Origin: Candidatus Heimdallarchaeota archaeon
Lineage (GTDB): Archaea > Asgardarchaeota > Heimdallarchaeia > Heimdallarchaeales > Heimdallarchaeaceae
DNA: 33,116 nucleotides
Direction: 5' to 3'
Assembly (NCBI GenBank): GCA_018238545.1
Contig: JABCTC010000037.1
Span: 1-33,116 of the forward strand
In this document: in pieces, positions 8,903-30,814 of the stretch
How the letters are laid out: each line of letters opens with the position of its first letter
Position numbering within the stretch: position 1 is the first letter of the stretch
Position numbers and translations under genes: made by a program
The notes under the pieces: model-generated
The model's input: the letters and a program-made list of their open reading frames with translations, nothing else
Database searches by the model: none
What the model was told of the DNA's origin: nothing

Positions 8903-9595
8903 TCATGAATACACTTGATTTGCTAGATAGTTAAAGATAATCGTAAGAGGTATTTCATAACACTGGGCGTTTACATTAGAAGTTTCATAAAAAACAATCT
9001 CTCTGTCCACCAGAGATGAATAAACTATTCTTTCTGCAATTTCCTTCCCAAGATATACTCCTTTCTCTCTTAGATCAGACTTGTTAATAAAAACAATAAC
9101 AGGTATTTTCCTTTGTTTTCTTTGTTCTTCTATATTTAACATATCTAAGTAATGTACAATTTTCTCCATAGAAGATATATTTGTTCCATCTGCCATAATA
9201 ATAACTAAATGAGCACCTTGAATTGCAATTTCTTGCATGAAATCAAATCTTTCTTGGCCTGCAGGATCATTGAATAGTACTTGAAAAGCTTCGTCTATTG
9301 ACTCATAATCAATAGTATTCAATTCATTAAATTTTTTCACAAGTATCTTGTTAAAACGGGTTAGAACAATCACAGAGTTTACAACATTAAGAGAGATTGT
9401 TGTTGTGCTTTGACTAAAATTATTATATTTTAATGGAGTAAAATCTAAATTGTCTCCTACTTCTTTGAAAACACGTCTAGCAACATCATTCTTCTCAAAA
9501 TCGCCAAATAATGCTTCCAGAAAAGAAGTTTTCCCAGAACCTGTTGTACCTAACACTGTTATCTTCTTCATGATTAAAGGTTCAACTAGTGTCAT
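8903..9595 (-). CDS. small Ras-superfamily GTPase with insertions
   Basis: G1 GTTGSGKT, G2 STTTIS, G3 DPAGQERF, G4 NKSD, G5 ETS. Confidence 0.85.
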   Translation of the reverse strand: MTLVEPLIMKKITVLGTTGSGKTSFLEALFGDFEKNDVARRVFKEVGDNLDFTPLKYNNFSQSTTTISLNVVNSVIVLTRFNKILVKKFNELNTIDYESIDEAFQVLFNDPAGQERFDFMQEIAIQGAHLVIIMADGTNISSMEKIVHYLDMLNIEEQRKQRKIPVIVFINKSDLREKGVYLGKEIAERIVYSSLVDREIVFYETSNVNAQCYEIPLTIIFNYLANQVYS

Positions 9596-9679: not shown

Positions 9680-10726
9680 TTACGAAACAAAATATATTGA
9701 TTGTCTTGCATCCCTTAGATGAGCCCTCTGACTTATCACACCTTTCTCTTTTAGGATGTTTAAAGCATTCCTAACAGTTCGATTAGGTAGACCAGTACTC
9801 TCAATCAACTCTTTTTGTGTCATTTCACCTTCTGTTACCAGTAATTTGAAAACATATTTAGCTGCAGGAGGAACTCCTTCCAGATGTCTTAAATCTAATT
9901 CTACTAATCGATTTCTTAACTTGGCAAGAATGTTTTTTCTTGCTTGAAGTCTAATTATTTTCACATCAGCTGTAGTTTGTTTAATACTTATGTTTTCTTC
10001 GAGTCTCACCCTTATTTGCCCATCAATGATAGCTTCAATGGCCGACCGAGATTTTAAGTTAGTTAATTTTACATCGGCATTTAATGGAACAACTACGGGG
10101 ATGTGATCTTTATTCAACGGGTTTACTGGGACTAGCAATAGTATCTCTGGGTCACTAACAGCTATCGGTCCTCCCGAAGAAAGAGCATATCCTGTGCTTC
10201 CTAAAGCAGTTGAAATAATCAAACCATCAGCCCTTCCTCTGTAAAGTACATTATTATCAACAACTAAAGTATAATTCATTAACAGAGCAGAATCTTTTGG
10301 AAAAATAGCAATTTCATTTAAAGCAGGTAAAGGGTTTTTATTTCTGTTATCTTTGATTTCAACTCTATGGTAAGTATCTACTAAGAAATTCTGTGAAAGT
10401 ATCAAAGCTAGACTATCTCTAATGTTTGAAGGAGTAATTTCTGTAAAAAAACTGATTCTTTCAGATGAAGCTGAGACAACAGGGATAGAATCCCGACTAA
10501 GGAAAATAGCTCTAAGAAATGTTCCAGTATCACCAATCGCAATTACCGTATCAATGTCGTTTTGTGGAAAAATTCGTAGTTGTCCTTCCCAATTATCTTC
10601 TTCTAGTTCTTGATCTTCAATTTCCAAAATCTCTGTTTCAGGTTCTAGCTCTAGTATCATCTCCTTGATAGTATTCGTATATTCAGTAGAACTCTTACCT
10701 CTCAACGAATATAAAGCTATTTTCAT
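9680..10726 (-). CDS. NAD kinase-family domain fused to C-terminal winged HTH
   Basis: ALNE and ADGLIISTALGSTGYALSSGGP, IDGQ (NAD kinase); GGDGT motif altered to GDTGT; C-terminal PPAAKYVFKLL..EGEMTQKELIESTGLPNRTVRNALNILKEKG wHTH. Confidence 0.85.
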   Translation of the reverse strand: MKIALYSLRGKSSTEYTNTIKEMILELEPETEILEIEDQELEEDNWEGQLRIFPQNDIDTVIAIGDTGTFLRAIFLSRDSIPVVSASSERISFFTEITPSNIRDSLALILSQNFLVDTYHRVEIKDNRNKNPLPALNEIAIFPKDSALLMNYTLVVDNNVLYRGRADGLIISTALGSTGYALSSGGPIAVSDPEILLLVPVNPLNKDHIPVVVPLNADVKLTNLKSRSAIEAIIDGQIRVRLEENISIKQTTADVKIIRLQARKNILAKLRNRLVELDLRHLEGVPPAAKYVFKLLVTEGEMTQKELIESTGLPNRTVRNALNILKEKGVISQRAHLRDARQSIYFVS

Positions 10727-10818
10727 CTGGACTAACTCTGATATTTATGCATTTCTAATAACTCATAAGATTATTTATATTTATGCACCAAATACGATTA
10801 GTATCAGCTTTTTTTTCA

Positions 10819-10850
10819 CAATACATAATTGTTCTGACATGTATGTATTG
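10819..10850. promoter_or_regulatory. imperfect palindrome in the divergent NADK-wHTH / nadA intergenic region (candidate operator)
   Basis: CAATACATAATTGT-tctg-ACATGTATGTATTG; 14-bp arms with 12/14 complementary, outer 9 bp perfect. Confidence 0.4.
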
Positions 10851-11045
10851 CATCCACATTGACAGTATTACAACCTATATCTAAGTGAATTTTGCATGAA
10901 TTTAGAAAAATTAATAGGTAAATATTGCTTCAATTTTCTTTGTTTATTTTAAAATTATTATTTTAACGTGCCAAAACTCAAGTTTAATAACCACAGATGT
11001 AAGTTTGGCCACTAACAAATGTTCTTTAAATAGCTTCATACAAAA

Positions 11046-12086
11046 TTGTCTTCGATTGTGATGGTTACCGTGGAAGAGGTCATAATTATACCAAGCCAGG
11101 ATCAAGAAAAATTAAAAGAAGAAGTTGATCGTCTTTACGCCAAACTAGCTAAATTAGGATGGACAAAAGAAGCCTGTGAAAGTATTGCACCATTTACACT
11201 TAGAATTAATACAATTAAAAAAGAAAAAGGCATAAAGATTTTTGCTCATTCTTACCAAACAGCTGACATAATTTTTGGTGTAGCTGATATTGTAGGTGAC
11301 TCATTAGGTCTCGCAAAGAAAGCTACTGAGGTTGAAGAAGACACAATTCTGCTCTGTGGAGTAGACTTCATGGCGGAAACCATGAAAATACTTAATCCTG
11401 AGAAAACTGTTTTTGTTCCAGAACCGGGTAGAGATTGTACTTTAGCTGATTCAATCACAGGGGAAGATGTTAAAAGACTTAAAAAAGAACATCCAGGCGT
11501 ACCAGTTATCTGTTATGTTAATACCAATGCAGGTGTAAAGGCTGAATCAGATATCTGTTGTACTTCTGCAAACGCCAGAAGAATTGTTGAGCAACTTGAA
11601 GCTGAAACCATTATCTTTGTTCCAGATGAGAATATGGGAAAGAACCTTGCAGAGCTTACAGGAAAAAATATTATCACTTTTCCTGGATATTGTAGAACTC
11701 ATCATGCACTTTCTGAAAAAAGATTCAACACATTACAGGACGATGCAGCTATCAAAACATTTGCTCACTTAGAATGCAAACCAGAAATCATTCAAAAGGT
11801 GGATTTTGCTGGTGGAACTGGTGACATGCACAGATTCGTTAAAAAGGCTAAACCTGGAGAAAAAGTCCTATTTCTAACCGAACAAGGTTTTGTCGACCGA
11901 ATGAAGATTGAATTCCCAGATATCGAATTCGTAGATAGTAACATGATCTGTATAAGCATGAAAAGAAATGATCTTCCAACCATATTGAAAGCAATAGAAA
12001 ACCCTACATCGGAAAATATCATTGAACTCGATGAAAAGGTTAGGAAGAAGGCATTCAAAGCTGTAAACAATATGCTAAAATACTAA
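11046..12086 (+). CDS. nadA: quinolinate synthase A
   Basis: AHSYQ, GDSLGLA, CGVDFMAET.KILNPEK, C.LADSI, YVNT.A.VKA.SDICCTSANA, C..H, HLEC, C.SMK. True start may be ATG 11061. Confidence 0.93.
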   Translation: MSSIVMVTVEEVIIIPSQDQEKLKEEVDRLYAKLAKLGWTKEACESIAPFTLRINTIKKEKGIKIFAHSYQTADIIFGVADIVGDSLGLAKKATEVEEDTILLCGVDFMAETMKILNPEKTVFVPEPGRDCTLADSITGEDVKRLKKEHPGVPVICYVNTNAGVKAESDICCTSANARRIVEQLEAETIIFVPDENMGKNLAELTGKNIITFPGYCRTHHALSEKRFNTLQDDAAIKTFAHLECKPEIIQKVDFAGGTGDMHRFVKKAKPGEKVLFLTEQGFVDRMKIEFPDIEFVDSNMICISMKRNDLPTILKAIENPTSENIIELDEKVRKKAFKAVNNMLKY

Positions 12087-12105
12087 TTCCTCGAGTTGGT
12101 TTCAA

Positions 12106-12942
12106 ATGATACCTCAAGTTTTAGTTGACGAAGATATCAAGAAATGGTTAGAAATTGATGTACCTTATTGGGACGTAACATCCAACCTCATCCCCAATAG
12201 TAAAGCTAAAGGGAAAATTTATGCAAAGCAAGATGGTATTATAGCCGGATTGCCATTTGTTAAGAGAGTTTTTGAAATTGTTGGAACAGAATTTGAAGCT
12301 CGTGTTGAAGAGGGAGCAAGAGTTTCTAAGAAAACAATTATAGCTTTAGTAAAAGGAGATATTCACAATCTGCTTCAAGCTGAAAGGTTAGTTTTGAATA
12401 TACTTGGTCGAATGTCAGGTATTGCAACTCAAACAGATATTATGAGACAAATAGCACGCAAGAATAATGAAAATATCAGAATTTGTGCAACAAGAAAAAC
12501 TGTTCCTGGATTAAGCAAATATGATAAATATGCAGTTACAATCGGAGGAGGAGATACGCACAGATTCAACCTGTCAGATATGATTCTGCTCAAAGAAAAT
12601 CATTTGAGGATGTTCAATACCATATCTGAAGCAGTAGCCAAAGCTAAAGAAACTATTAGTTTCAGTAAAAAAATAGAGGTTGAAGTTCAGAACGAAGAAC
12701 AAGCAATTGAAGCTACAAAAGCTGGAGCAGATATTGTCATGTTAGATAACTTCTCTCCTCAACAAGCAAAACACGTAATAGCAAAAATAAAAGCAATTAA
12801 CAATTTAATGTTGATAGAGTTAAGCGGAAATATATCGCTGGATAACTTGGAAATTTACTCATTTGAAGGTATAGATCTAATCTCTTCAGGAGCTCTAACC
12901 CATTCAGTTAAGAATTTTGATTTGACCATGCTCATAGAGTAG
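12106..12942 (+). CDS. nadC: nicotinate-nucleotide pyrophosphorylase (quinolinate phosphoribosyltransferase)
   Basis: ER..LN.L.RMSGIAT, TRKTVPG, GGG.THRF.LSD.ILLKENH, IEVEV, MLDNF, ISSGALTHS. Confidence 0.95.
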   Translation: MIPQVLVDEDIKKWLEIDVPYWDVTSNLIPNSKAKGKIYAKQDGIIAGLPFVKRVFEIVGTEFEARVEEGARVSKKTIIALVKGDIHNLLQAERLVLNILGRMSGIATQTDIMRQIARKNNENIRICATRKTVPGLSKYDKYAVTIGGGDTHRFNLSDMILLKENHLRMFNTISEAVAKAKETISFSKKIEVEVQNEEQAIEATKAGADIVMLDNFSPQQAKHVIAKIKAINNLMLIELSGNISLDNLEIYSFEGIDLISSGALTHSVKNFDLTMLIE

Positions 12943-12956: not shown

Positions 12957-15737
12957 TTAAGTCTCACTTTTGCTTATCCTTACAGCAATTTTCTTACGTT
13001 CTATCACATTATCATAAAAGTCTTCGTTTTTCTTAATGAAAATCTTAGTTGCTTTGTCATATGAGGATATAGCGTGGTTAATATTTTCTTTTTTATTTTC
13101 CTCAATAGAGAGAACAGTATAGATATCACCTAGGATAGTGGTAGAGATAGCATACTCAAAAGGAAACTGCGCTTGGTTTCTGACAGTTAATGCATCATGT
13201 AAAACTAGAAGTGCTTGTTTACAGTTAAGAGATTTTTCTTGAGTTTCTGCTAAAAGGCGATATGCTACACCAATATTGCTATAGATCATTGCTCTTTCTG
13301 TTGGCATTTTATCTAAAGTGCCTGTTCTAAGTGCTGCATTGTAGGAATCAATAGCAAATGTTGAATAATACTCGTTTGCTTCAATTCCAGAAAGAGTTTG
13401 ATAAGCAGCACCTTGATTAACTAAAGTCACACCATGATCAAACGGAAAGTTTGCTAAATCTCTACCAAGTATTGCTTCTTTGTAAGAAAATATTGCATAT
13501 TTGCTATTAACCTCTTTTTCTTCTAGTTCTGCTAAGGTTTGATAAGCTAATCCAAGATTATGATTAACTTGACTGTACTTATGCACAAATAAATCAACAG
13601 AGAACACTTGTAAAGCCTCCTTGTAGGAACTAATTGCAAAATTATAATTCTCCACCTTATTTTCGATTTCTGCAAGACTAGAATAGAAGTTTCCCAAATC
13701 ATTATGAGTTGTAGCAAAAAGAAGTGGTGAGTTTTTCAAAGTATACTTCTTCAAAGCAGCTAAATACGCCTTTATTGCTAATTTTATGAAGATAATCCTC
13801 CATTTCTTTACTGATAATTCTCCAATGAAATTTTTAATATTCCAAAATTGAGAGGAATACAAACTATCAATATTTGCTATAAAATATGCCGCTTCCCCTA
13901 TTTTTAACATTTCTTCTGGAACGTTTTTGAACAAGCTAATAAGTTTCTTGAAGTTTGAAGGTATATCTGGAGATAGATTTCCACCAAATCCAAGTGCTTC
14001 TCTCATGTATTGCTCTTCTACTGGTAACTCATAATTATCCATCATTAATAGTTTATCATCATTCAGATCCCCTAGCCATTCCTTCCATAAATAACGACCA
14101 CCTAAGAAAGATTCAGTTTTATAAGCTGCTTTTATTGTCCATACTCTGGGAACTTGCTCTTCCTCGCTATCAGATTTTGTGTCTGATATTTCTTTAAGAA
14201 GAGCTTCCTCAGCTGAATAATTATCATAGCTTGTTTCAATTACTGTATCGCCTATCTTCTGAATTAACACTCCTCTTTTCTTCATTGCATGAGCAGCAAC
14301 TAATTGATAATGACCTCCGTAAACGGCAAAATCAAGAATTTGATGAATATGATCATCAGAAGTCTGAAAAACACTTCTAACCTCTCTCACAGAAGTATTT
14401 CTCGCATAAGCTATATCTATAAAAGTTAAATTAATCTCTTCTTTTAGATGCCAAATATACCACTGATTATCCTCGAGTAATAGTGGATAAGGATTTTCTA
14501 TACGCATGTAACCATATCTAAGCAAAAACCTGTAAGCTTGCCCAAACTGAACAAGATCTCCTCCCATAATCAAATTATTGATTGACAAAGGTTCTTTTTC
14601 GTCCAATAATTCTATTTTATTAAATTGTGTTCTTGGATTAATAGTAATTTTTAGCAATGGTTTTCTCTCTTTCTCTTGCCAATAACTAATCTGGTTTTTA
14701 TATTCAGTTTTATCTGCTAGAAATTCTTTTATGTGAGATAAATTCTTTATTTCGAAAAGCTGTACATCACCGGGTATAGGCAATAATTCTCTCTTAATTT
14801 TATCTCCTTCTTCTTTTATAGTTTCACCCAATGTAGCTGTAGCTAGATTACGAGCGCTATCTGGGACTGCTTGTAGAGGTGATTGAGAATCTTTGATAGC
14901 GGTTCTAAGTTGTTTCACAGACATCTGAGGACGCTGTACCTTTCCGAATACTGGTGTTAAATTAGCTCTAGCATCTTTTATTGTGGTTGCAAGATCTTTC
15001 TTAGTTAGCGCATGCCTTCTCTCACTAGCTGACAATTTTTTTAACCCTCCTTTAGCATCACGAATCTCAGATTGTAAATCTTGTTTAGTTAAGACATGCT
15101 TCTTTTCAGAATCTGATACTTTCTTTAAACCTTTTTTAACATCACGAATCTCAGATTGTAAATCTTGTTTAGCTAAAGCATGGTTAATTTTTTCCTCCGC
15201 TACGGGTCTTAAGCTTGAAATAACATCTTTTATAGCTATCTCAAAATCCTGTTTAGAAAGGGCACGTTTCTTATCACTCTTAGAAACGGGTTGTAAACTT
15301 TCTAAAGCGTCTTGAATTGCAGTTTCTAAGTCTTTCTTTAGAACCCTTTTCTTATCTGATGCTTCAGGAAATTTCTTCAGATTAGCTTTTGCGTCTTTAA
15401 TCTCAGTTTGTAAATCTTGCTTAGAAAGAGCATGTTTTATCTCATCATCAGACACAGGAATCAAGCTATCTATCACTTCCCCAATTGCTGTTTCTAGATC
15501 TTCTTTTGACACACGTTTGTTATCATGTACTTGATCTGAGATTGGTTTTAACTTTCCTATAGCATCCTGAATTGCACTTTGCAGATCTCTCTTAGTTACA
15601 CCTTCAGTTTCAGTTTTATCCACCTTTTTTAGTGTTTTCTTTAATTCATCTTTTGAATCTTCCAATAAAGCAGCTGTTGGAGATACTCCTTTCTTCACTT
15701 TTGCTTTTTTTGAACGCTTACCTTTTTTGTTTGACAC
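12957..15737 (-). CDS. 926-aa protein: polybasic N-terminus, tandem WH2-like repeats, unknown central domain, C-terminal TPR array
   Basis: GTG start. Nine 28-29-aa repeats (aa 47-299), e.g. LQSEIRDVKKGLKKV, FEIAIKDVISSLRPV. Five ~47-aa TPR-like units (e.g. THNDLGNFYSSLA...AISSYKEAL). Confidence 0.85.
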   Translation of the reverse strand: MSNKKGKRSKKAKVKKGVSPTAALLEDSKDELKKTLKKVDKTETEGVTKRDLQSAIQDAIGKLKPISDQVHDNKRVSKEDLETAIGEVIDSLIPVSDDEIKHALSKQDLQTEIKDAKANLKKFPEASDKKRVLKKDLETAIQDALESLQPVSKSDKKRALSKQDFEIAIKDVISSLRPVAEEKINHALAKQDLQSEIRDVKKGLKKVSDSEKKHVLTKQDLQSEIRDAKGGLKKLSASERRHALTKKDLATTIKDARANLTPVFGKVQRPQMSVKQLRTAIKDSQSPLQAVPDSARNLATATLGETIKEEGDKIKRELLPIPGDVQLFEIKNLSHIKEFLADKTEYKNQISYWQEKERKPLLKITINPRTQFNKIELLDEKEPLSINNLIMGGDLVQFGQAYRFLLRYGYMRIENPYPLLLEDNQWYIWHLKEEINLTFIDIAYARNTSVREVRSVFQTSDDHIHQILDFAVYGGHYQLVAAHAMKKRGVLIQKIGDTVIETSYDNYSAEEALLKEISDTKSDSEEEQVPRVWTIKAAYKTESFLGGRYLWKEWLGDLNDDKLLMMDNYELPVEEQYMREALGFGGNLSPDIPSNFKKLISLFKNVPEEMLKIGEAAYFIANIDSLYSSQFWNIKNFIGELSVKKWRIIFIKLAIKAYLAALKKYTLKNSPLLFATTHNDLGNFYSSLAEIENKVENYNFAISSYKEALQVFSVDLFVHKYSQVNHNLGLAYQTLAELEEKEVNSKYAIFSYKEAILGRDLANFPFDHGVTLVNQGAAYQTLSGIEANEYYSTFAIDSYNAALRTGTLDKMPTERAMIYSNIGVAYRLLAETQEKSLNCKQALLVLHDALTVRNQAQFPFEYAISTTILGDIYTVLSIEENKKENINHAISSYDKATKIFIKKNEDFYDNVIERKKIAVRISKSET
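14841..15599 (-). repeat. intragenic ~84-nt tandem repeat encoding WH2-like units
   Basis: Identical 33-mer catcacgaatctcagattgtaaatcttgtttag at 15056 and 15140 (84 nt apart); protein periodicity of 28 aa. Confidence 0.9.
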
Positions 15738-15776: not shown

Positions 15777-16748
15777 TCAAAATTTATATTCAGATATTTC
15801 TCTGCAATTTTCTCGTGGAATTTTCAGAGTTGAAGTAATGAATTCAATTAATTCTTCTTTTGTTTCAGCAACTTTTTTCTCAAGGTGATCATAAATTAAT
15901 TCAATAAGTCTTTGCGCATCTACTTGAGAATCATCTGGTTCAGTTATTAGTGATAATACTATTTCTCCCCTTTCTTGAAACACAATTTGACCATAATTTG
16001 AAACGACACTTGCAATCTTCTCTTCACTAAGAGCATGTTCTTCATCTTTTAATACCTCTGAAAGCAAATCCAGAACAGAAATTAGATTTTTGTTTACATC
16101 AGAAAAATCTAAGAACAGTTTAATATTACCAAAAATTGAGGAAATTATCAAACCCTTGGGTGAAACTGTTCGATCGCTGGAAAGGTCCTGTACTTTTCTG
16201 GTAAACCACTCCATAGCGTTATTAATATTCACAGAGGTTTTTACACTTACTTCGAAAATTTGGAAACTGATTTTTGGAAACTTGCTAAGTTCTTGTAGAT
16301 TTAGAGTGTCAATGATTTCATCAAGTCGCATTGATTCTAAATCAGCTTTGTTAGCTAGAAAAGCTAAAGCAATTCTTCTTTCTACCTTTAAATTATTTAT
16401 CAGATACCAAAACCATTCTTTACCCTCTTCAGTTCTCTTCTTGTCAGAAGCGTCAAAAAGAAATAAAACACCATAACTATTTGCGGCGTAATTTATCCAA
16501 AATTGACGTCTTAAGACCTCGTGTCCTCCAACATCAAATATTTTTAGGAGGCTATCTCCAGCTCTATAGGTCTCAAAGTTAACTCCGATTGTTTGAGCAG
16601 TATTGTCTACCCACTCCCCAGTTGCAAGTCTTAACGCTAAACTTGTTTTTCCAGCATTATTTAAACCCAATAAAGTTACAGGGACACCTTTTTTTTCAAA
16701 ATTTAAATTTACCATAATTATCACTTTTCTCCAATTTTTATCATTCAA
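15777..16748 (-). CDS. Arf/Sar-like small GTPase with C-terminal longin/roadblock-like domain
   Basis: GLNNAGKT, QTIG, DVGGH, FW..Y, LANKAD, EVSVK; ~135-aa C-terminal extension. True start may be ATG 16715. Confidence 0.85.
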   Translation of the reverse strand: MNDKNWRKVIIMVNLNFEKKGVPVTLLGLNNAGKTSLALRLATGEWVDNTAQTIGVNFETYRAGDSLLKIFDVGGHEVLRRQFWINYAANSYGVLFLFDASDKKRTEEGKEWFWYLINNLKVERRIALAFLANKADLESMRLDEIIDTLNLQELSKFPKISFQIFEVSVKTSVNINNAMEWFTRKVQDLSSDRTVSPKGLIISSIFGNIKLFLDFSDVNKNLISVLDLLSEVLKDEEHALSEEKIASVVSNYGQIVFQERGEIVLSLITEPDDSQVDAQRLIELIYDHLEKKVAETKEELIEFITSTLKIPRENCREISEYKF

Positions 16749-16754
16749 ATTTCT

Positions 16755-18071
16755 TTACTCGACAAACACAACTTCCCTAAATTGTGAAAGTTCCTCTTTT
16801 GTCATTCTATTCGGATATTCAAACTTGTCTATCAATTCGCAGAATCTTTTTTCTATGCTTATATTTGAAATCAAAAATTCTGTTTTTCTATTTGGTAAAA
16901 TCACAGCAATAAGGTAATATTGTTTTCCTCTCATACGATGATCGAGAGGAATATCATCTTTTCCATGGAAAGCATATATTATTGTTCTATAATTTTCCAA
17001 TTTGGGTGCTGGAATAGGTCCAAAAACCCCAATCGGTTGAGTATTTCCTTGAGCAATACTAGTGTAACACATAGTTGAGAAATATTCAGGAGCTATTGCT
17101 ATACTTCTAAGGTCCTCTTTGACTAGTTCACCTCCAAAAGAAGCGAATCTGAAAAGTGCGACACCTATATTATCTTCGTTTGCCATGGACCTTCTCAGAT
17201 TCTTAATCTCTTCCTCTTGTTTGAGATGATAACTAGCATCATTTAAAGTCAGAATGAGTGTTGTTTCTTCACCTTTTGTAACTTGGGTGAGTTTTACATG
17301 ACTTGGAAACTCAGAACCGTCTTTTCTTCTTATGTTGTAGATCAACCCTTCCACAGTATCCCCTTCTAGGAGTATAAAGGTGAGATCAGGAAAGATATTG
17401 TTAATGAGGGTTGATGAGGTTTTCAGTTCTTCTGACGTGTAACCAGTCATCATTTCGAACATTTGATTAGCAAAAAGAAACATTCCTTTTGAATCGATGG
17501 ATGCAATACCTGAGGAGATACTCTGAATTATTTTTGTTGTCTCAGTTGATTCGTTATCCTTTTGTTTCTGTTTATCCACTTTTTGTAAACCTATATAGAC
17601 AATAGGTAGAATTTCTCTAAGTTCACCAATAATCTTTTGAGTATCAGAAGATAAATCATTTAGTGGTATTTCTAGCAGAAACTCCAAATCTCCGTGAAAA
17701 ATAAAAGGATAATAAATAGTGGGAGTGTTTTTCCTTTTTGAAATTGATCTTTTCCTAAGAACAGGTTTTGTAAGTGATTTTATTCTAGTAATGAGTTTTT
17801 CATCTAGAATTGCAAACCGTTCAAGTTTTTCATCCTTTCTTTTTGAAGCTATTACACTATTGTCACTTTTGTATTGACGATAGAAAATACAATCGTCATT
17901 ATTGTATAATTCATGAAGCAAAATAAGCAATTTATCTAAGATTTCTGAAACTGACGATGCATCTATTAAGGAATGTAAGAACTGAATGAATGAATTATTT
18001 TCTATTATTTGTATTTGAGAATTTTCTCTCTCTCGTTTTGTATCATAGGTTGAAGTGGTCAAATCAATCAC
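16755..18071 (-). CDS. GAF-like + PAS + unknown (possibly longin/uDENN-like) C-terminal domain protein
   Basis: PAS: IIQSISSGIASIDSKG..LFANQMFEMMTGY...RKDGSEFP. N-terminal GAF-like pattern. C-terminus GVALFRF...FGPIP...YAFHGKD...RMRGKQYYLIAVI. Confidence 0.75.
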   Translation of the reverse strand: MIDLTTSTYDTKRERENSQIQIIENNSFIQFLHSLIDASSVSEILDKLLILLHELYNNDDCIFYRQYKSDNSVIASKRKDEKLERFAILDEKLITRIKSLTKPVLRKRSISKRKNTPTIYYPFIFHGDLEFLLEIPLNDLSSDTQKIIGELREILPIVYIGLQKVDKQKQKDNESTETTKIIQSISSGIASIDSKGMFLFANQMFEMMTGYTSEELKTSSTLINNIFPDLTFILLEGDTVEGLIYNIRRKDGSEFPSHVKLTQVTKGEETTLILTLNDASYHLKQEEEIKNLRRSMANEDNIGVALFRFASFGGELVKEDLRSIAIAPEYFSTMCYTSIAQGNTQPIGVFGPIPAPKLENYRTIIYAFHGKDDIPLDHRMRGKQYYLIAVILPNRKTEFLISNISIEKRFCELIDKFEYPNRMTKEELSQFREVVFVE

Positions 18072-18095
18072 TCATCAGCTCATTTGATAATCCAT

Positions 18096-18995
18096 TTAGA
18101 ATTCCCATTTTATTGATTCAGCAAGGTTCTTGATTACTTCCTTATCTATTTTCAATTCTCTTTTAATTCTTGATAATACTTCAAAGAACATAGTTAGACC
18201 TGTTTCTCTTGCAAGGCTCTGTTCATCGTCTTTATCAACATAGAGAATTGCGTAGTAATCACCTTTCTTGAGCATGTGAACAACAAAATTATCAATATTA
18301 ATCGAAGGCAATGAATCAATCATTTTCAACGAGTGAGCACGGAATACTTGTTGAACATCCAGCAGATCGTTTTTTTTCTCATTTTCTATTAGTATTTCTT
18401 CTACTATTGGTTCAAGTCTTTCATCCAACATTTCAAAAGCATAGATGTTTATTGTTGGTTTAGCCTCCATTCTTCTTCTTATCGACTGAGACAACCAAGT
18501 CCAACACTCTTGAATGTTCTCACCTGAAAGACTTGAAGTTTCAAAAACTCTAAAGCTTTTCAATGGTGACTCACTGAATTTTGTTAAATCTAACTGTTTA
18601 ACAATATTCTCTAAACTGAGTATATCTTCTAAATCTGATTTATTGGCAAAGAAAGCAAAATTCGCATCTTTAGGAATCCATTCTTCTACTTTCCATAACC
18701 ATTCCTTTACAAGTTCCATTCTGTTTTTGTCTGATCTATCAAAAACAAAAATGCAACCTTGACAAGAAGAAACAAAGTTTTCCCAGAAGTTGGATCTAAA
18801 TGATTGATGCCCACCAAGGTCTACAACATCAAAGCGGAAATCCTTTTCCTTAATAATTGAAAGATCATATCCTACTGTTGGATGGAAATCTGCTCTAAAC
18901 TCACCTGTTTTTAACCTATGAACAAATGTTGTTTTTCCAGCTTTTTCAAGCCCTGTAATAGCAATTAATGGATGAATTTTCTTTTTAATACTCAT
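18096..18995 (-). CDS. Arf/Sar-like small GTPase with C-terminal longin/roadblock-like domain
   Basis: GLEKAGKT, PTVG, DLGGH, FANKSD, ETSS; ~120-aa C-terminal extension. Confidence 0.87.
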   Translation of the reverse strand: MSIKKKIHPLIAITGLEKAGKTTFVHRLKTGEFRADFHPTVGYDLSIIKEKDFRFDVVDLGGHQSFRSNFWENFVSSCQGCIFVFDRSDKNRMELVKEWLWKVEEWIPKDANFAFFANKSDLEDILSLENIVKQLDLTKFSESPLKSFRVFETSSLSGENIQECWTWLSQSIRRRMEAKPTINIYAFEMLDERLEPIVEEILIENEKKNDLLDVQQVFRAHSLKMIDSLPSINIDNFVVHMLKKGDYYAILYVDKDDEQSLARETGLTMFFEVLSRIKRELKIDKEVIKNLAESIKWEF

Positions 18996-19032
18996 ACTTA
19001 TCCCAATTAATTCTCTGCAAGATATATTAACT

Positions 19033-19075
19033 CTATATCGAAAAGAATGTGAAAAAATAGGGAAAAATAGGGAAA
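19033..19075 (-). promoter_or_regulatory. conserved upstream motif, copy 1 (upstream of the leftward GTPase operon)
   Basis: Minus strand TTTCCCTATTTTTCCCTATTTTTTCACATTCTTTTCGATATAG; 37/43 ungapped identity to copy 3. Confidence 0.7.
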
Positions 19076-19172
19076 AGGTTTTTGTATTATGAAAAGATAT
19101 CGTCTAGTTAATACTTAATAGATTGAGGTCAATTAATAACTTATCTTGATGTATTAGAAGAGGGGATATCAC

Positions 19173-22100
19173 TTGGGTATTGGAACAATCAGCATACAAT
19201 TGCTGTTGGACATAGCAGATTTTATCTATATTGCAGTTGATGTTAATCAAAAAGTCACTTTAGTTAATAAAAAAGGATGCGAGATTCTTGGTTATTCAGA
19301 GGATGAGATTATTGGTAAGGACTGGTTCGATAATTTTCTCCCAAAAGGAGTTGCTAAGGAAATTAAATCTAGTTTTATTAAACGAATTGATGAAAAAGAA
19401 GAGTTCAAACTTACTAAGAGCTATTCTATATTAACAAAGGAAGGAGAGGAAAGATTAATTTCTTGGCAAAGCACTTTTTACATTGATAAGGAGGGAAATT
19501 TAAGTGGTGTTTTATGTTCAGGAGAGGATATTACAGAAAAACGTAAAATGGAAGTAGAATTAGAGAAAGAAAGAAAAACAACGAAACAATGTTTAGAAAT
19601 TGCAAATGTCGTTTTAATTGCAATTGATGCGAATGAAAATGTTACATTAGTCAACAAAAAGGGTTGTGAACTATTAGGCTATGAACACGAAGAGATAATT
19701 GGAAAAAATTGGTTTGATAATTTTCTACCCAAAAGAATATGTAACAAAACAAAGGAAGTTTTTAAAAAGATAATGAATGATGAAATTGCTCAATCTGAGT
19801 ACTATGAGAATCTCCTTCTTACTAAAGATGGCGAAGAGAAACTAATAGCATGGGATAATACCGATATTAGAGATGAAGAAGGAAGAATCATAGGAACTTT
19901 AAGTTCAGGAAGAGACATTACTGAAAAGAGACAAGCAGAAGAAAAACTGAACGAAAGAGAAAGATTATCAAATATCATCCTCAACCATGCTTTTCAATTA
20001 ACTGGAATTTTAGATCTTGAAGGCAGATTACTTCAAATCAATCAAACAGCTCTAGATTTTGCAGGATTGAAGGATGAAGATGCAATCGGAAAGTTGATCT
20101 GGGATACATATTGGTGGTCTCATTCAGAGGAAGAAAGAATTAGATTACGAAAGAATATAAGAAGAGCTTCCAAAGGGAAAATTATTCAAGATGAAATTAC
20201 AAATATAGATAAGAACGGCTATATTCGGACTATGGATTTTTCTGTGAAACCAATAACAGATAATAGAAGTAATGTTACTTCATTTATAATTGAAGGACAG
20301 GACATTACTGAGAAGAAACTGGTATATTCGAACCTTCTTAAAAGTGAACATAAGTTCAGAAGTATTTTCAATCATTCCAATGATGGATATATTTTAAGAA
20401 CAGTCGAAGGTATTATTTTGGAAGCAAATCCTAGATTTCTTGAGATGTTTGGATACGAATCTTCTGAGGTTATTTCTAATAATACAATGTTTATCAACAC
20501 ATTTGAAACTGAAGAAGAACATAAAAGAAGAGGGAAAGAAATCGAAAAGAAAGGATATGCTATGTTCGAAACTTTAGCCAAAAGAAAAGATTGTTCTATT
20601 TTTCCAATGGAAGCAAATGCAGTTAAACTATTACTTGGTAGCGAAGAAGTAATCTTTGTAATTTTTAGAGACATCACTGAAAGGAAAGAAATTGAAGAAA
20701 AAATCAAATCTTCAGAAGCGTTGTACAGAGCACTTTTCGCATATACAGGTACAGGAATGATGCTATTAGAAGAAGACTTTACCATAACACTAGTCAATGA
20801 TCTATTGATAGAAAAATCAGGTATCTCACAAGAAGAATTTATTGGTAAAAAATGGACAGATTTTGTTCAGAAAGAAGAAAGAGAAAATATAACAAAAGCA
20901 GTCAAAAGGATGAATATAGATTTCATTCCACCATTGACTTTTGAAACCTCGGAGTTTAACATATTTGGGGAAAACAAAACTCTACTAGTAACAATAGGAA
21001 TTATTCCTGAAACAAAACAACAAATAGCTTCACTAATTAATATAACTGAACAGAAAAAACTTGAAAAAGAACTTAGAGAAAGTGAAGAAAAATACAGAGA
21101 TCATTTTGATAAATCACCTATTGGTTTAATTCAAAATAAACCTAATGGAGAAATTATTGCTTGTAATCCTGCTTTCTTGAAATTTTTTGGCTATGAAAGT
21201 GTGGAAGAAATAAAGAAACTTCACGTTGAAGAGTTCTATTTTGATTTAGAAGACAGCAAGGAAATTCTTGGAAAATTTGATACAGAAGGTTCTTATTATA
21301 ATCGTCTTATGAAGGCGAAAAAGAAAGATGGTTCTCTTTTTTGGATTGAGTTGTACTCTCGAGTTATCTATGATGAGAATAATGATGCTACTTATCACAA
21401 TTCATCTTTGATAGATGTAACGGAGAAGAAAATAAATGAAGAAATGTTAGTAGAAAGTGAAGAAAGACTTAGAAATCTGTTTGAAAACATCCCCCTTGCT
21501 ATTTCTATTGATTCCTTGGATGGAGGATTAATCGATATAAATCCGGCTTTTTGGAAGCTTTTTGGATATAGCAATAAAGAAGAATGTCTCTCAACCCCTT
21601 TTGCTAATCATTGGTTCAATATCAGAGATCGTGAAAGACTTTATGATTTATTACGTCAAAGGAATTTTGTTTATAACTTTGAAACAAAACGTTCTAGAAA
21701 AGATGGAAGCGAATTCTGGGGTTCAATCACTGCCATAGCTCAGATGGATACTTCAGGAGAAAGAATATACTTCACAGCACTTAGAGACATCACAACTAAA
21801 AAGCAAAGAGAGGATGAGCTGAGAAGACAAACCTTGAGACATCATTTGGAAGAATCTCATTTGTATCTATCAGAAGAAGAGCGCCCATATATTTCAAAAG
21901 AAGTTTTTTATGATTTGCTAAGAGTTGGATATAATGGTCTCGTTCTATCAAGATTACCTGAAACTGAATGGAAGAAAGATACAAATTATGAATTTGATTT
22001 CTTTAGAATAGCTGAAAAAGGGCACCTAAAAACCATCTCTTCCGAGTTAAGCAAGATAGAACAACTAATAGAAGAACTTCCAAACAAGCACGTTATAGTT

Positions 22101-22517
22101 ATTGATAGGCTCGATTATCTCATTGCTAAGAATGGTTTTGAGACCACTTTGTTCCTCATCTTTAGATTAATGGACATTGCCTACCTCTCTAATCACATAA
22201 TCATTGTAACACTTGATCCTGCAACTATCAATGAAAAAGAGAGTAGATTATTGAGAAAAGAGATGCGAATGATTAAATCCTTAGCTGAAGCTACTCTGCC
22301 TGAAGAACTAATCGAGATATTGGAATTTGTTCATAAAAGGAATATTAAAGGAAACAAACCTTCCTATACAGATATTGTTGAAGCTTTCAATATAAGTAGA
22401 CCTACAGCGAGGAAACGAATAAAGGATTTAATCAGCGACGATTACACATATGAATTAACTAAAGGAAGAAGTAAAGTTCTTGGGATAACAGCAAAAGGAA
22501 AAGCTATTTTTGATTGA
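19173..22517 (+). CDS. multi-PAS (7x) - DUF835 - winged-HTH one-component regulator
   Basis: Seven PAS/PAC units ending in DITE-type motifs; DUF835-like VIVIDRLDYLIAKNGF...LDP; C-terminal PSYTDIVEAFNISRPTARKRIKDL...ITAKGK wHTH. TTG start after gagggg. Confidence 0.85.
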   Translation: MGIGTISIQLLLDIADFIYIAVDVNQKVTLVNKKGCEILGYSEDEIIGKDWFDNFLPKGVAKEIKSSFIKRIDEKEEFKLTKSYSILTKEGEERLISWQSTFYIDKEGNLSGVLCSGEDITEKRKMEVELEKERKTTKQCLEIANVVLIAIDANENVTLVNKKGCELLGYEHEEIIGKNWFDNFLPKRICNKTKEVFKKIMNDEIAQSEYYENLLLTKDGEEKLIAWDNTDIRDEEGRIIGTLSSGRDITEKRQAEEKLNERERLSNIILNHAFQLTGILDLEGRLLQINQTALDFAGLKDEDAIGKLIWDTYWWSHSEEERIRLRKNIRRASKGKIIQDEITNIDKNGYIRTMDFSVKPITDNRSNVTSFIIEGQDITEKKLVYSNLLKSEHKFRSIFNHSNDGYILRTVEGIILEANPRFLEMFGYESSEVISNNTMFINTFETEEEHKRRGKEIEKKGYAMFETLAKRKDCSIFPMEANAVKLLLGSEEVIFVIFRDITERKEIEEKIKSSEALYRALFAYTGTGMMLLEEDFTITLVNDLLIEKSGISQEEFIGKKWTDFVQKEERENITKAVKRMNIDFIPPLTFETSEFNIFGENKTLLVTIGIIPETKQQIASLINITEQKKLEKELRESEEKYRDHFDKSPIGLIQNKPNGEIIACNPAFLKFFGYESVEEIKKLHVEEFYFDLEDSKEILGKFDTEGSYYNRLMKAKKKDGSLFWIELYSRVIYDENNDATYHNSSLIDVTEKKINEEMLVESEERLRNLFENIPLAISIDSLDGGLIDINPAFWKLFGYSNKEECLSTPFANHWFNIRDRERLYDLLRQRNFVYNFETKRSRKDGSEFWGSITAIAQMDTSGERIYFTALRDITTKKQREDELRRQTLRHHLEESHLYLSEEERPYISKEVFYDLLRVGYNGLVLSRLPETEWKKDTNYEFDFFRIAEKGHLKTISSELSKIEQLIEELPNKHVIVIDRLDYLIAKNGFETTLFLIFRLMDIAYLSNHIIIVTLDPATINEKESRLLRKEMRMIKSLAEATLPEELIEILEFVHKRNIKGNKPSYTDIVEAFNISRPTARKRIKDLISDDYTYELTKGRSKVLGITAKGKAIFD
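19524..19926 (+). repeat. ~400-bp PAS-coding segment duplicated at 24107-24509
   Basis: Collinear high-identity DNA at a constant offset of 4583, from gaggata(t/c)acagaaaaacgtaaaat to ttactgaaa. Confidence 0.85.
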
Positions 22518-22521
22518 CTTT

Positions 22522-22547
22522 TTTCCCTATTTTTCCACGTTTTTTCA
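22522..22547 (+). promoter_or_regulatory. conserved upstream motif, copy 2 (upstream of the histidine kinase operon)
   Basis: TTTCCCTATTTTTCCACGTTTTTTCA, followed at the same spacing as in the other copies by TTTC and GTTA. Confidence 0.65.
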
Positions 22548-22633
22548 TTAATATTTCTAAATTTAGTTATAGAGATAAAAGAATGTTAAACTAAAAGAAT
22601 ATCTGAAAAGATGTAGATCTCTTTCAAAAAACT

Positions 22634-25600
22634 GTGATTAAATTGCGTGTACAACCAGAAACTAATAGCAAAATTGAGAAGAATTCCAATGATTTAGCTT
22701 ATTTCTCTGGAAGATTTGATGATTTAGGTGAAAACCTATTGAAACTATCTCCTAACGAGCATATCTGTACTATTTATCGAAAGGATGAGGATAAGATAGA
22801 TTCTATAATGGAATTCCTTAAAACAGGCATAGTAAAAAAAGAGAGATGTGTAATCATAGTTGATAATAAAACTATAGAAGATATTCAAACAAAGATAAAG
22901 GCTTCAAAAGAAATTAAGAATCTTCTCAATACTTCTGCATTAGAGATCGTAGATTCAGAAGATATTTATGGTAATAAATCTGAGTTCAATCTAGCTAGAA
23001 CTATTGAATCAATTGAAGCTCATTTAGAAATTCCACAAGAAGACAAGTTCAATGGATTAAGGTTAAGCATTGAGATTTTACCTTTAAACAATAAGGACTC
23101 AACTATGAATATAAGTATGGAACTTCATTCATTTTTCGATAAACTCATTTCAAATAAAGATATTAGTTTTTTCTGTTTATATAACGAATACAAATTCGAT
23201 TCTAGAACGCTATTAGAGGCTATTATTACACACTCTAAGTTAATTTTTAATGGTTATTTATGTAGAAATGTTTTATTTATGGACCCTCATCAACTTCAAT
23301 TAATACTAGAAGATAGGCTAGATGAAACACTCTACAAAAAAACAGTCTACGAAATCGTTCAAAGGGAGATAGCTGAACAAAAAAGAGAGAAAGAAGTTTC
23401 TCACATTCAAACAGAAACTCTCAAAGGCATAAATGATTCTGCCTTTATTATAGATTTTAAAGGCAATATACTTGAAGTAAACGAAGCTGCATACAAAACA
23501 AGAGGATATACAGAAGAAGAGATGCTAAGTCTGAATATTTTAGACATTATGACCTCAGTAAATAGAGACTTATTTGATTCGAGAATTGAAGAACTAAAGA
23601 AAAAGGGAGAGATAACATTTGAAACAACTCATAATTGTAAATATGGGTCAGTATTAGATGTTGAGTTTAAGGCAAAAATTATCAGTTATGATAATCAACA
23701 ATCTATTTTAAGTGTTGGAAGAGATATAACTGAAAGAAGAATCGCTAAAGAAGAAGCAAAAACTAGCGAAGAAAAGTTTCGTACTCTTTTTAATGAAATG
23801 AAACAAGCTTACGCCTTATATGAAGTAATATATGATAGAAAAGGTGACCCTGAAGATGCAATATTAGTAGAAGTTAATTCAGAATACGAAAAATTAACAA
23901 ATAAGAAGAGAGAGGAAATAATTGGTAAGAAAATAACAGAAATCTATCCTAACATGAAGAAACAAGAGGTTAATCCAATAGTAATTCTAGGAAGAACCAT
24001 GATAACAGGACAGACTGTAATATCAGAGTACTATAACAAAGATATTGGTAAATGGCTTTTAGCAAAATCTTTTTCTCCAATGAGAGATCATGTTGCAGTA
24101 TTATATGAGGATATCACAGAAAAACGTAAAATAGAAGGAGAATTAGAGAAAGAAAGAAAAACAATGAAACAATATTTAGACATTGCAAATATCATCCTAA
24201 CTGTAATTGATACAAATGAAAATGTTATATTAGTCAACAAGAAGGGTTGTGAACTTTTAGGCTATGATAAAGAAGATATAATTGGAAAAAATTGGTTTGA
24301 CAATTTTCTACCTGAGAGAGTTCGAGAAGAAACAAAAGAAATTTTTCAAGAACTATTAGCAGGTAAAATAACACAATCTGAGTCTCATGAGAACCTGATT
24401 CTTACTAAAGATGGTGAAGAGAGATTAATTGCATGGGATAATACCTTCATTAGGGATGAAGAAGGAAAAATTATAAGAACTTTAAGTTCGGGAAAAGATG
24501 TTACTGAAATAAGAAAAACTCAAAGAGAACTTAAAGACAGCGAAGAAAAATACAGGATGATTTTTGATAACACTAATGATGCAATATATCTTTATAGTAT
24601 TGATGAACAGATTCTATCAAATTTTATTGAAGTTAATGATGTAGCCTGTAATATGTTAGGTTATACTAAAGATGAGTTCAGAAAAATGTCTCCAGTTGAT
24701 ATAGCCTCAAAGGAAATTAAAAAGCAAATTCCAGAGATAATTAGCAAACTTACAACATTAAAAAACCTAACCTTTGAAGGGACTCATTGTACAAAAGAAG
24801 GGAAAATAATTCCAGTTGAAGTTAGTGCTCATACTTTTTATTATCACAACAAACAAATGGTATTAACAATTGCTAGAGATATTTCTGAAAGGAAAAAATC
24901 TGAAGAGAAATTAAGTAAGTTGAATGAAGAACTAGAAGAGAAGGTTATTCAGAGAACTTACCAAATGGAAACATTGTACAATATTATTAAAGATATATCT
25001 GAAACTTTTGATTTAAAAGAAGCCATGGAAATTATTGCTAAGTATATTTCACAGTTAATTGATTATGATATCATTGTCCAGCTAATAACTCAAGAGGGAT
25101 TAAACCTCATTCAAATTGGAGCACCAAAGGGTAATAAAGAAGTAATCGATGATTTTCTAAAAACAGTTAAGGATGAATTAGTAGAAATAAATCCTGATGC
25201 TTCAACCAATCGCGATTCTACAACTATTATTACGTCAAATGAGAAGAAACTTCAAAAAATTTCATCTCGCTTATCCATACCGCTTATTGCAGAGGATAAG
25301 GTTGTTGGACTTATTGTTGTAGGTTCAGAGCAAGAGGATGCTTATATTGAAGAAGAGATCTGGTTCTTGTATAAAATAGCGGACAATATTTCTCATACTC
25401 TTCAAAGATTAAAGGTAATTATAACAGCAAAGGATGAATTAGAAACAGTTCTCAATCATACATCTGACGGCGTCATTCTCTTGAATAGTCAAGAATCTGT
25501 AGTAATGGTGAATAAAGCTGCAAATAGATTTTTAGAGATAATCAAAGATTCTAAGACTAATGGAATAAACAATGAAATATTAGACCTTGGAGAGCTAAAA

Positions 25601-26878
25601 CAAATTGGCAAAAAGGAATTATCTCTGAATGGTTATACCTATTATGTCTCTATGAGTCCAATAAAAAGTGATTTTGTTCATGGTTGGCTACTAACTATTC
25701 ATGACATAACTGAAGAAAAAGTGATGCAAAAGAAGATACTGCATCAAGAGAGATTAGCTACATTAGGAAAGATGGCTGGTGGTATCGCTCATGATTTTAA
25801 CAATATTCTTGCCTCTATAATTGGTGCAGCAGATTTCTCTTTAATGAATGCTGATAATATAGAGTCAAAAGAGTTTCTGAATTTAATAATCAAGCAAAGT
25901 GAGAGAGGGGCATCTTTGATAAGACAGATGTTAGACTTTACAAGACAAACAGTGATTCAACCACAACCTGTTTCAATACTTGATTTTATTACAGAATTTT
26001 CTAGAGTTATCAGATCGTCCTTACCGGAAAATATTATTTTATCTGCCAATACACAGGATTGGACAGTTTTAATGGATCAAGTTCAATTGCAACAGCTTTT
26101 TATGAATCTCATATTTAATTCTAGAGATGCTCTTGTTCGTGGAGGTAAAATCAATATCACTGTAGAAGAAATTGATCATTCAAAGATAGTGGACTTTGAA
26201 GAAATAGAAATAGACAAAAATCGAGAATACATTCAGCTTACTATTGAAGACAATGGAGAAGGGATGAATGAACAAACAAGAAAGATGATTTTTGAACCCT
26301 TTTTTACTACAAAAGACCCAGGAAAAGGAAGTGGGCTAGGTTTAGCACAGGTTTATGGTATAGTTAGGCAGTCTAATGGTTATATTAATGTGGAAAGTGA
26401 ATTGAAAGAAGGAACAAAAATTCATATCTACATTCCAAAGCATGAGGGATTGGTAGAAGAAGAGATTGTGGAATCAGCAAGCAATGGAGAAGGAAGAATT
26501 TTACTAGTTGAAGACGATGAAAATGTAAGAGAGATTACCAAAATGATGCTAGAGAACTATGGATTTAGAGTAGTTACTGCAGAAAACGGGAAAATTGCTC
26601 TAGATTTATTTAACGATACCTTTGATTTAGTCTTAACAGACATTATTATGCCTGTTATGGGAGGAGAGAAACTGATCAAGAAGGTATTAGAAATCAATCC
26701 ACAAGTAAAATGCTTAGCTATGACAGGATATTCAGATGTGGATGTACCAGAAGGTATCAAAGTTCTAAATAAACCTATAACAACTTCAAAACTAGTCAAC
26801 TATATTCAAAACGAACTTGATCAAGTAGATCGTCAAGAAAAGAAAGTTCAGAATGAAAAAAGAGAGGATGGTGGTTAA
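22634..26878 (+). CDS. hybrid sensor histidine kinase: MEDS - 4xPAS - GAF - PAS - HisKA - HATPase - REC
   Basis: MEDS (EHICTIY...FLKTGI..KERC...CLYN...THS), H-box GGIAHDFNNIL, N-box NLIFNSRDA, DNGEGM, FEPFFTTK..GKGSGLGL, REC ILLVEDD...TDIIMP...KP. Confidence 0.92.
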   Translation: MIKLRVQPETNSKIEKNSNDLAYFSGRFDDLGENLLKLSPNEHICTIYRKDEDKIDSIMEFLKTGIVKKERCVIIVDNKTIEDIQTKIKASKEIKNLLNTSALEIVDSEDIYGNKSEFNLARTIESIEAHLEIPQEDKFNGLRLSIEILPLNNKDSTMNISMELHSFFDKLISNKDISFFCLYNEYKFDSRTLLEAIITHSKLIFNGYLCRNVLFMDPHQLQLILEDRLDETLYKKTVYEIVQREIAEQKREKEVSHIQTETLKGINDSAFIIDFKGNILEVNEAAYKTRGYTEEEMLSLNILDIMTSVNRDLFDSRIEELKKKGEITFETTHNCKYGSVLDVEFKAKIISYDNQQSILSVGRDITERRIAKEEAKTSEEKFRTLFNEMKQAYALYEVIYDRKGDPEDAILVEVNSEYEKLTNKKREEIIGKKITEIYPNMKKQEVNPIVILGRTMITGQTVISEYYNKDIGKWLLAKSFSPMRDHVAVLYEDITEKRKIEGELEKERKTMKQYLDIANIILTVIDTNENVILVNKKGCELLGYDKEDIIGKNWFDNFLPERVREETKEIFQELLAGKITQSESHENLILTKDGEERLIAWDNTFIRDEEGKIIRTLSSGKDVTEIRKTQRELKDSEEKYRMIFDNTNDAIYLYSIDEQILSNFIEVNDVACNMLGYTKDEFRKMSPVDIASKEIKKQIPEIISKLTTLKNLTFEGTHCTKEGKIIPVEVSAHTFYYHNKQMVLTIARDISERKKSEEKLSKLNEELEEKVIQRTYQMETLYNIIKDISETFDLKEAMEIIAKYISQLIDYDIIVQLITQEGLNLIQIGAPKGNKEVIDDFLKTVKDELVEINPDASTNRDSTTIITSNEKKLQKISSRLSIPLIAEDKVVGLIVVGSEQEDAYIEEEIWFLYKIADNISHTLQRLKVIITAKDELETVLNHTSDGVILLNSQESVVMVNKAANRFLEIIKDSKTNGINNEILDLGELKQIGKKELSLNGYTYYVSMSPIKSDFVHGWLLTIHDITEEKVMQKKILHQERLATLGKMAGGIAHDFNNILASIIGAADFSLMNADNIESKEFLNLIIKQSERGASLIRQMLDFTRQTVIQPQPVSILDFITEFSRVIRSSLPENIILSANTQDWTVLMDQVQLQQLFMNLIFNSRDALVRGGKINITVEEIDHSKIVDFEEIEIDKNREYIQLTIEDNGEGMNEQTRKMIFEPFFTTKDPGKGSGLGLAQVYGIVRQSNGYINVESELKEGTKIHIYIPKHEGLVEEEIVESASNGEGRILLVEDDENVREITKMMLENYGFRVVTAENGKIALDLFNDTFDLVLTDIIMPVMGGEKLIKKVLEINPQVKCLAMTGYSDVDVPEGIKVLNKPITTSKLVNYIQNELDQVDRQEKKVQNEKREDGG
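24107..24509 (+). repeat. second copy of the duplicated PAS segment
   Basis: Matches 19524-19926 (see above). Confidence 0.85.
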
Positions 26879-27269: not shown

Positions 27270-27300
27270 GAAATATCAAAGGAACAGTGAGGTAGAAAAA

Positions 27301-27741: not shown

Positions 27742-27795
27742 GGTGTTTCAATCAACAGTGTAGAAAATATGAAAGTTATAATTAGAGGCTGAAGT

Positions 27796-29241: not shown

Positions 29242-29245
29242 GTTC

Positions 29246-29288
29246 TTTCCATATTTTTCCCTGTTTTTTCACATCTCTTTCAATATAG
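29246..29288 (+). promoter_or_regulatory. conserved upstream motif, copy 3 (upstream of the rightward pseudo-receiver/GTPase operon)
   Basis: TTTCCATATTTTTCCCTGTTTTTTCACATCTCTTTCAATATAG; inverted relative to copy 1. Confidence 0.7.
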
Positions 29289-29353
29289 TGTTATTACTAA
29301 ATATGATATTATCAATTGAAAAAAAAACTTATAGAACAAGAGGAGTAAATAAA

Positions 29354-29905: not shown

Positions 29906-29907
29906 AA

Positions 29908-30810: not shown

Positions 30811-30814
30811 AGAG

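Follow-up and report, generated by a model that had tools for sequence, protein, structure and literature searches.

In Spire, WH2 motifs recur at a period of about 28-30 amino acids (aa). Tandem helix-plus-extension motifs of another type, the GoLoco motifs of LGN/Pins, bind GDP-bound G protein and share their chain with a TPR array, and proteins such as MRTF/Phactr, with their RPEL repeats, and JMY are transcription cofactors that sense monomeric actin (G-actin). In Asgard archaea, profilins and gelsolins make up most of the actin regulators described to date (bioRxiv 10.1101/2025.11.30.690169; PMC12050087), and the gelsolins carry WH2-like linkers that read LRRV, LKHV, LRRT or LVDV/LKDV (PMC9433394; bioRxiv 10.1101/2025.11.30.690169). 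This study concerns a gene on contig JABCTC010000037.1 of a member of the Heimdallarchaeaceae (GCA_018238545.1); the whole stretch of 33,116 nucleotides (nt) is referred to as the window, and coordinates of features are given on it. The minus-strand open reading frame (ORF) at 12957-15737 encodes a 926-aa protein for which a first reading, made without database searches (here referred to as the sequence-only reading), had proposed nine tandem WH2-like repeats, a TPR array and a role in actin regulation. Its architecture, i.e., a basic tail, an array of portable helix-plus-LxxV units, a unit with a helix-turn-helix (HTH) resembling sigma-70 region 4, and a TPR superhelix, is real and was not previously described. 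The protein is most likely a scaffold with a link to GTPases, in which the array binds one partner in several copies. G-actin is the leading single candidate for that partner, and the probability that the array binds it directly is put at roughly 35%.

The ORF is supported by homologues, whose starts coincide with its own. The nine tandem repeats of 28-29 aa, which the sequence-only reading had placed at aa 47-299, were recovered both by profile and as a period in the DNA, and are now placed at aa 43-295. A unit profile scores each of the nine copies at 43-49 bits, with periods of 29 and then 28 residues, and at the DNA level eight 50-nt copies with 60-74% identity are spaced at 84 nt (87 nt in one case). 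The ratio of nonsynonymous to synonymous substitution (dN/dS), calculated against three relatives, is 0.08-0.14 in the repeats and 0.06-0.07 in the folded parts; this purifying selection, together with the consistent repeat profile, indicates that the repeats are real and maintained. Copy number among homologues ranges from 7 to 10 and changes by exact 28-residue steps, and over 157 units of the family conservation falls on K(-7), D(-5), L(-4), I(0), D(+2), A/V(+3), L(+7), P/K(+9) and V/I(+10). A degenerate preceding unit (aa 20-42), a basic N-terminus (nine K/R within 20 aa, in a tail that is strongly shortened in Heimdallarchaeum) and a TPR array are present as first described. The membrane association suggested in the sequence-only reading gains no support, given how far that tail is shortened in Heimdallarchaeum. 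The proposed consensus ending L[KR][KP]V, by contrast, was overstated, and the units quoted for it were the five best of the nine. The core endings are LKPI, LIPV, LKKF, LQPV, LRPV, LKKV, LKKL, LTPV and LQAV; L[KR][KP] occurs in five and LKKV in one, and the four left out of the earlier account (LIPV, LQPV, LTPV and LQAV) have no basic residue. Units 1, 2, 4, and 5 are of a more hydrophobic L-x-P-V type, and units 3, 6, 7, and 8, with the degenerate unit 9, are of a more polar type. Two further parts had been overlooked, a conserved but degenerate tenth unit (aa 296-322) and, at aa 326-475, a folded middle region that contains the HTH, so that the architecture differs from that account.

The repeat unit recurs outside this protein. 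Among 6793 ORFs of the host, the best non-self match of the repeat profile is an unrelated protein encoded on contig C33 (E 0.0015; the C33-type protein), which scores 16.7 bits with a profile built without host units, against at most 9.6 bits in 12 reversed or shuffled proteomes. In the opposite direction, the best outside match of a C33-family motif profile is the protein of the window (E 0.003, as the sum of several weak units). The C33 family is the top outside match in four genomes, namely the host, both Heimdallarchaeum genomes and G186, which belongs to another family (E 0.005); it ranks second in G024, and none was seen in G004. The C33-type protein is near-core in Heimdallarchaeaceae (24 of 27 genomes) and consists of an N-terminal coiled coil, a Pro/Gly/Ala linker, two to three motif copies, a C-like helix followed by an acidic patch, and a terminal helix. 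The motif copies thus sit in Pro/Gly linkers ahead of a C-like helix and an acidic patch, which is a WASP-like layout; in 20 of 25 sequences the helix agrees with the published pattern for the C domain, and the acidic patch often ends in F. PDB searches returned only generic coiled coils for the N-terminal part, with no WASH or WAVE chain among the matches listed, and no WASP chain for the C-terminal part. Relatives in other families of the order carry helices of the form VLSEL/LLSEV and endings LKPV or LKKA. Judged by these profiles, the unit is a portable motif that the lineage also employs in an unrelated protein, which is disordered and near-core. The two proteins most likely share a partner to which the unit binds, because isolated copies in proline-rich linkers cannot form a solenoid. 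The identity of that partner would be the least secure step, since likeness of pattern is the sole basis for naming actin.

The reuse of the motif also bears on whether the repeats need an outside partner at all. They might pack against one another, against further copies of the protein or into its own TPR groove, and serve as a helical bundle, spacer or autoinhibitory arm. In the full-length model the repeats are separate helices joined by coil, mostly of low confidence, with no solenoid, as the sequence-only reading had expected. An additional hydrophobe (I/L at +4, A at -1) marks units 1, 2, 4, and 5, the sole repeats to reach a predicted local distance difference test (pLDDT) score of 66-77, with a hint of a small four-helix bundle, so that partial self-packing of these four units is possible in the model. 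In addition, the stripe L(-4), I(0), A/V(+3), L(+7) is one face of any ordinary amphipathic helix. Units of the polar type, however, remain at pLDDT 29-43, copy number varies, and the motif stands singly in the linkers of the C33-type protein. Self-packing as the whole explanation is considered unlikely.

Whether the common partner could be actin was assessed with a reference pattern derived from 1080 WASP-family WH2 motifs (PMC3298513), to which the 157 units were compared. A large hydrophobe occupies -4 in 96% of units, I/L position 0 in 89% and K/R/Q +1 in 76%; L at +7 and V/T/A/I/L at +10 each reach 99%, and linker length also fits. The units thus have the WH2 helix signature of a large hydrophobe, I/L four residues later and then K/R/Q, with a hydrophobic moment of 0.43-0.63, and most positions of the WASP-family pattern are matched as far as residues can tell. 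The host, an Asgard archaeon with a 92% complete assembly, could supply such a partner, as had been presumed: it encodes one divergent actin-family gene, two gelsolin genes and two true actins (E 5e-135 and 1e-132) that, as read from the alignment, are about 60% like eukaryotic actin. In an alignment with solved Heimdall (PDB 9wc4) and eukaryotic actins, the residues of the barbed-end cleft read as conserved. A Pfam profilin search of the host gave no match and is uninformative. The two actins (L001 and L002, on C21 and C52) are close paralogues, 83% identical, and G014 likewise shows a second copy; the divergent gene (L003, C42:17305-18774) encodes 490 aa from its first start, with a CxxC-type, zinc-ribbon-like N-terminal extension.

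Several observations weigh against actin as the partner, and most strongly against WH2 identity; the sequence-only reading had called the repeats WH2-like. The second hydrophobe of the LL hallmark is found in 0 of 157 units, the position being E/Q/R/K, and the full ending L[KR][KR][VTA] occurs in 14 of 157 (9%; one of nine here). An ending relaxed to permit P/H and I/L reaches 46%, and 27 of 157 units (17%) have an acidic residue within the two basic slots. The amphipathic stripe noted above is not specific to WH2. No single unit matches Pfam WH2, thymosin or RPEL, repeat-profile searches of PDB sequences find no WH2 chain, and a two-unit profile run against 5.8 billion proteins gives 21 matches, all family members and none a WH2. 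Across the host and 200 Asgard genomes, Pfam WH2 has no match above cut-off, and ESM Atlas feature searches yielded nothing useful. A relaxed WH2 pattern of the ELM type fits 58 of 157 units, yet it occurs 1.4 times per 1000 aa of the host proteome and is too permissive to use; a strict LKKV expression is no more frequent than in shuffled proteomes. Together, the profile nulls, the missing second hydrophobe and the rarity of basic endings mean that the repeats, by these measures, fall outside formal WH2 membership. This speaks more against their being WH2 than against their working like WH2, because true WH2 motifs are known to escape standard databases (PMC4314737) and Asgard gelsolins bind actin via non-basic variants such as LVDV (PMC9433394). 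The units also lack the R-P-x-x-x-E-L core of RPEL, and MIM1, a motif of the ESCRT system, was rejected on leucine spacing.

The distribution of the gene also counts against actin as the partner. It is patchy (11 of 30 Heimdallarchaeaceae genomes), whereas actin is near universal, and no actin gene lies near it. The orthologue in H. endolithica (G006) is split by an insertion of about 1.7 kb (L022:7609-11963), and the copy in G001 has decayed to a frameshifted remnant of the repeat region (L087:1519-1933) that still lies immediately upstream of Arf-like GTPase genes; the orthologue is intact (856 aa) in G005, a closed genome. The H. endolithica insertion holds a 504-aa ORF resembling a transposase or TnpB-type protein, with another such ORF just upstream. 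The named homologues are from Heimdallarchaeota/Heimdallarchaeaceae, and in a sample of 250 Asgard genomes neither the middle domain nor the repeat array has a strong match outside Heimdallarchaeaceae.

The gene is also associated by position with small GTPases. An Arf-like gene lies directly adjacent in 10 of 13 loci, upstream or downstream and in at least three gene orders, against a background of 2.1% of host genes that touch a small GTPase; the 13 loci are kin rather than independent. The three loci with no such neighbour are those of Heimdallarchaeum and the relative P0020. Since the adjacency outlasts rearrangement, a functional link with Arf-like GTPases is favoured, and the GTPase connection raised by the sequence-only reading stands as far as gene order goes. 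The same linkage could mean that the repeats are a portable motif for a non-actin partner, e.g., the neighbouring GTPases themselves in a GoLoco-like manner. The failure of the WH2 hallmarks agrees with this, and the C-terminal third counts the TPR domains of LGN/Pins among its best natural fold matches (E ~3e-5). That region forms helix pairs in a superhelix, as is seen from its model, its fold matches and a weak TPR_12 match (E 5e-5); the whole-protein model matched TPRs only in Foldseek, and a Pfam scan of the whole protein gave nothing useful beyond TPR_12. The TPR likeness is generic, however, with a designed consensus TPR first and OGT/SPY also among the best, and the units show neither a Pfam GoLoco match nor the D/E-Q-R triad. 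Moreover, the repeats persist in Heimdallarchaeum, where the linkage is absent, and the C33-type protein has the motif with no GTPase neighbour in the host. A non-actin partner is unlikely, if slightly less so than self-packing.

The middle region raises a further alternative, namely that the protein is chiefly a DNA-binding HTH-plus-TPR regulator that arose by fusion of a small Heimdallarchaeaceae HTH protein to a TPR array, in which the basic tail and repeats aid oligomerisation or DNA contact and actin has no part. When aa 296-600 were used in an exhaustive profile search, three small stand-alone proteins were recovered (E 5e-7 to 6e-4; HHalign 97% for the best), two of which are labelled Heimdallarchaeaceae and two of which have weak Sigma70_r4 Pfam matches. 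A joint sequence profile places six extracytoplasmic function (ECF) sigma chains on top in PDB (E 0.009-0.7). The model of aa 318-500 is confident (pLDDT 84), and aa 415-475, which have a tetrahelical HTH fold, match sigma region 4 and related HTH domains with Z 7.9-9.4 and a root-mean-square deviation of 1.2-2.3 Å over 52-59 residues; nearly all of the top 13 structural matches are of this kind. R454 never varies and falls opposite the arginine in the recognition helix of sigma-E, and the middle region is better conserved than the repeats. A Pfam HigB match at aa 441-496 was rejected, being under the cut-off and overlapping the HTH. The helical bundle of sigma-70 region 2 is absent: the preceding subdomain is alpha/beta with no structural match found, the template modelling (TM) score of the whole domain is below 0.5, and Foldseek gave no match for the middle domain at E < 0.001. 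Against a primarily DNA-binding role, the fusion family has neutral or acidic residues where, after R454 in the second half of the recognition helix, the stand-alone proteins have basic ones, a loss with which DNA binding may have gone as well. A Z of 8-9 for a small helical domain is evidence of fold alone, and the motif shared with the C33-type protein would be left unexplained. As the whole account this alternative is quite unlikely, although it is compatible with the favoured scaffold. Two of the three stand-alone proteins head three-gene runs that end in a PIN-type RNase or a like-sized ORF. Three loci (L062:714-1908, L064:5001-6168, L074:1468-2670) hold a stand-alone 175-aa sigma4-like HTH gene with an 83-aa gene after it and then a PIN/NYN-type RNase or an ORF of like size, near HEPN, HNH or Schlafen-type genes, and look like toxin-antitoxin or mobile cassettes.

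The favoured explanation is that of a cytoplasmic scaffold or relay of an Arf-like GTPase signalling island. Its 7-10 short amphipathic helices, with L-x-[PK]-[VI] after each, form a string that appears flexible and is joined to the alpha/beta and sigma4-like HTH unit and then to the TPR superhelix. Each unit would fold upon binding one copy of the common partner, and the TPR groove would receive regulatory input, perhaps from the neighbouring GTPase. If the partner is G-actin, which is the least secure step, the helix would lie in the subdomain 1/3 cleft with L-x-[KP]-V on subdomain 1, in the manner of WH2. Because the endings are mixed and often non-basic, weak, avidity-driven binding is suggested, i.e., holding, delivering or sensing monomers rather than efficient nucleation; Spire-like nucleation is very doubtful, and actin-gated DNA binding is highly improbable. 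The features of the gene, its neighbours and the C33-type gene are listed in Table 1.

Table 1. Features of the array gene, adjacent genes and the C33-type gene (positions on the window unless a locus is named)
Feature	Position	Strand	Remarks
Whole gene	12957..15737	-	926 aa, GTG start; 16 full-length homologues
Basic N-terminal tail, aa 1-16	15690..15737	-	long in host genus, short in Heimdallarchaeum
Degenerate unit 0, aa 20-42, LKKV ending	15612..15680	-	
Nine repeats of 28-29 aa, aa 43-295	14853..15611	-	K-x-D-L-x-x-[AE]-I-x-D-[AV]-x-x-x-L-x-[PK]-[VI]
Repeat 6, aa 184-211	15105..15188	-	exact LKKV, as in no other core unit
Degenerate tenth unit, aa 296-322, LLPI ending	14772..14852	-	strong conservation
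Small alpha/beta subdomain, aa 326-407	14517..14762	-	common to stand-alone 175-aa Heimdallarchaeaceae proteins; no fold match
Sigma-70 region-4-like HTH, aa 415-475	14313..14495	-	R454 invariant
Conserved segment, aa 476-590	13968..14312	-	modelled poorly
TPR superhelix, about aa 592-923	12969..13964	-	TPR_12 match and model
Arf-like small GTPase with C-terminal extension	15777..16748	-	39 nt upstream, same strand
PAS-domain protein	16755..18071	-	same operon-like run
Second Arf-like small GTPase of the run	18096..18995	-	
C33-type protein gene	L008:5996-6928 (G000 C33:11995-12924)		

The signalling island spans 15777-31765 of the window and contains four Arf-like GTPases, multi-PAS proteins, two histidine kinases and receiver-sized ORFs; by eye, several of these GTPases show longin-like C-terminal extensions. 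On the other side of the gene, 9680-12942 holds an NAD kinase whose C-terminal part is a winged helix, next to nadA and nadC, and a further small GTPase lies at 8903-9595.

If the array does bind actin, it would represent a third class of Asgard actin regulator, tied to Arf-like GTPases by gene order. Two corollaries, each at best as likely as direct actin binding itself, are that Heimdall-group archaea own a free-standing WH2-like motif for actin monomers in at least two unrelated proteins, and that the array couples G-actin binding to Arf-like signalling and a DNA-binding-type domain, as a tandem-monomer regulator or an actin-sensing transcription factor. No report of a free-standing tandem WH2-like array in Asgard archaea was found in a literature search whose coverage mostly excluded subscription journals. 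What is new here is the reuse of the motif and the fusion to an HTH. Because the family is narrow and dispensable, the finding, if true, would represent a lineage-specific use of the motif and not an ancestor of Spire.

Among known systems, Spire, Cordon-bleu, VopL/VopF and the Pfam family PF02205 are alike in having, in tandem, a short amphipathic helix and then L-x-x-V, in a disordered context and at a near-equal period. The present array differs from these proteins in that the LL pair is lacking, the basic doublet is rare, at least nine units are present, no Pfam or PDB sequence match is found, and an HTH and TPRs are fused to it. LGN/Pins/AGS3 resemble it in combining a TPR superhelix with tandem helix-and-extension motifs on one chain in a G-protein context, whereas here the domains come in the opposite order, no GoLoco signature is present and the resemblance between the TPRs is generic. 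Sigma-70 region 4, LuxR-type HTH proteins and HTH-TPR regulators (RRNPP, MalT-like) share the HTH fold and C-terminal TPR array, but here there is no sigma region 2, the HTH is internal after the alpha/beta subdomain and repeats, and its recognition helix is less basic. MRTF/Phactr and JMY would be functional analogues should the repeats turn out to bind G-actin and the HTH to bind DNA, which is an analogy alone, with no RPEL match. Lastly, the Asgard gelsolin linkers share the four-letter actin motif L-x-x-[VT], including the actin-binding, non-basic LVDV; in gelsolins these are single linkers between folded domains, whereas here the helix and motif form free-standing arrays.

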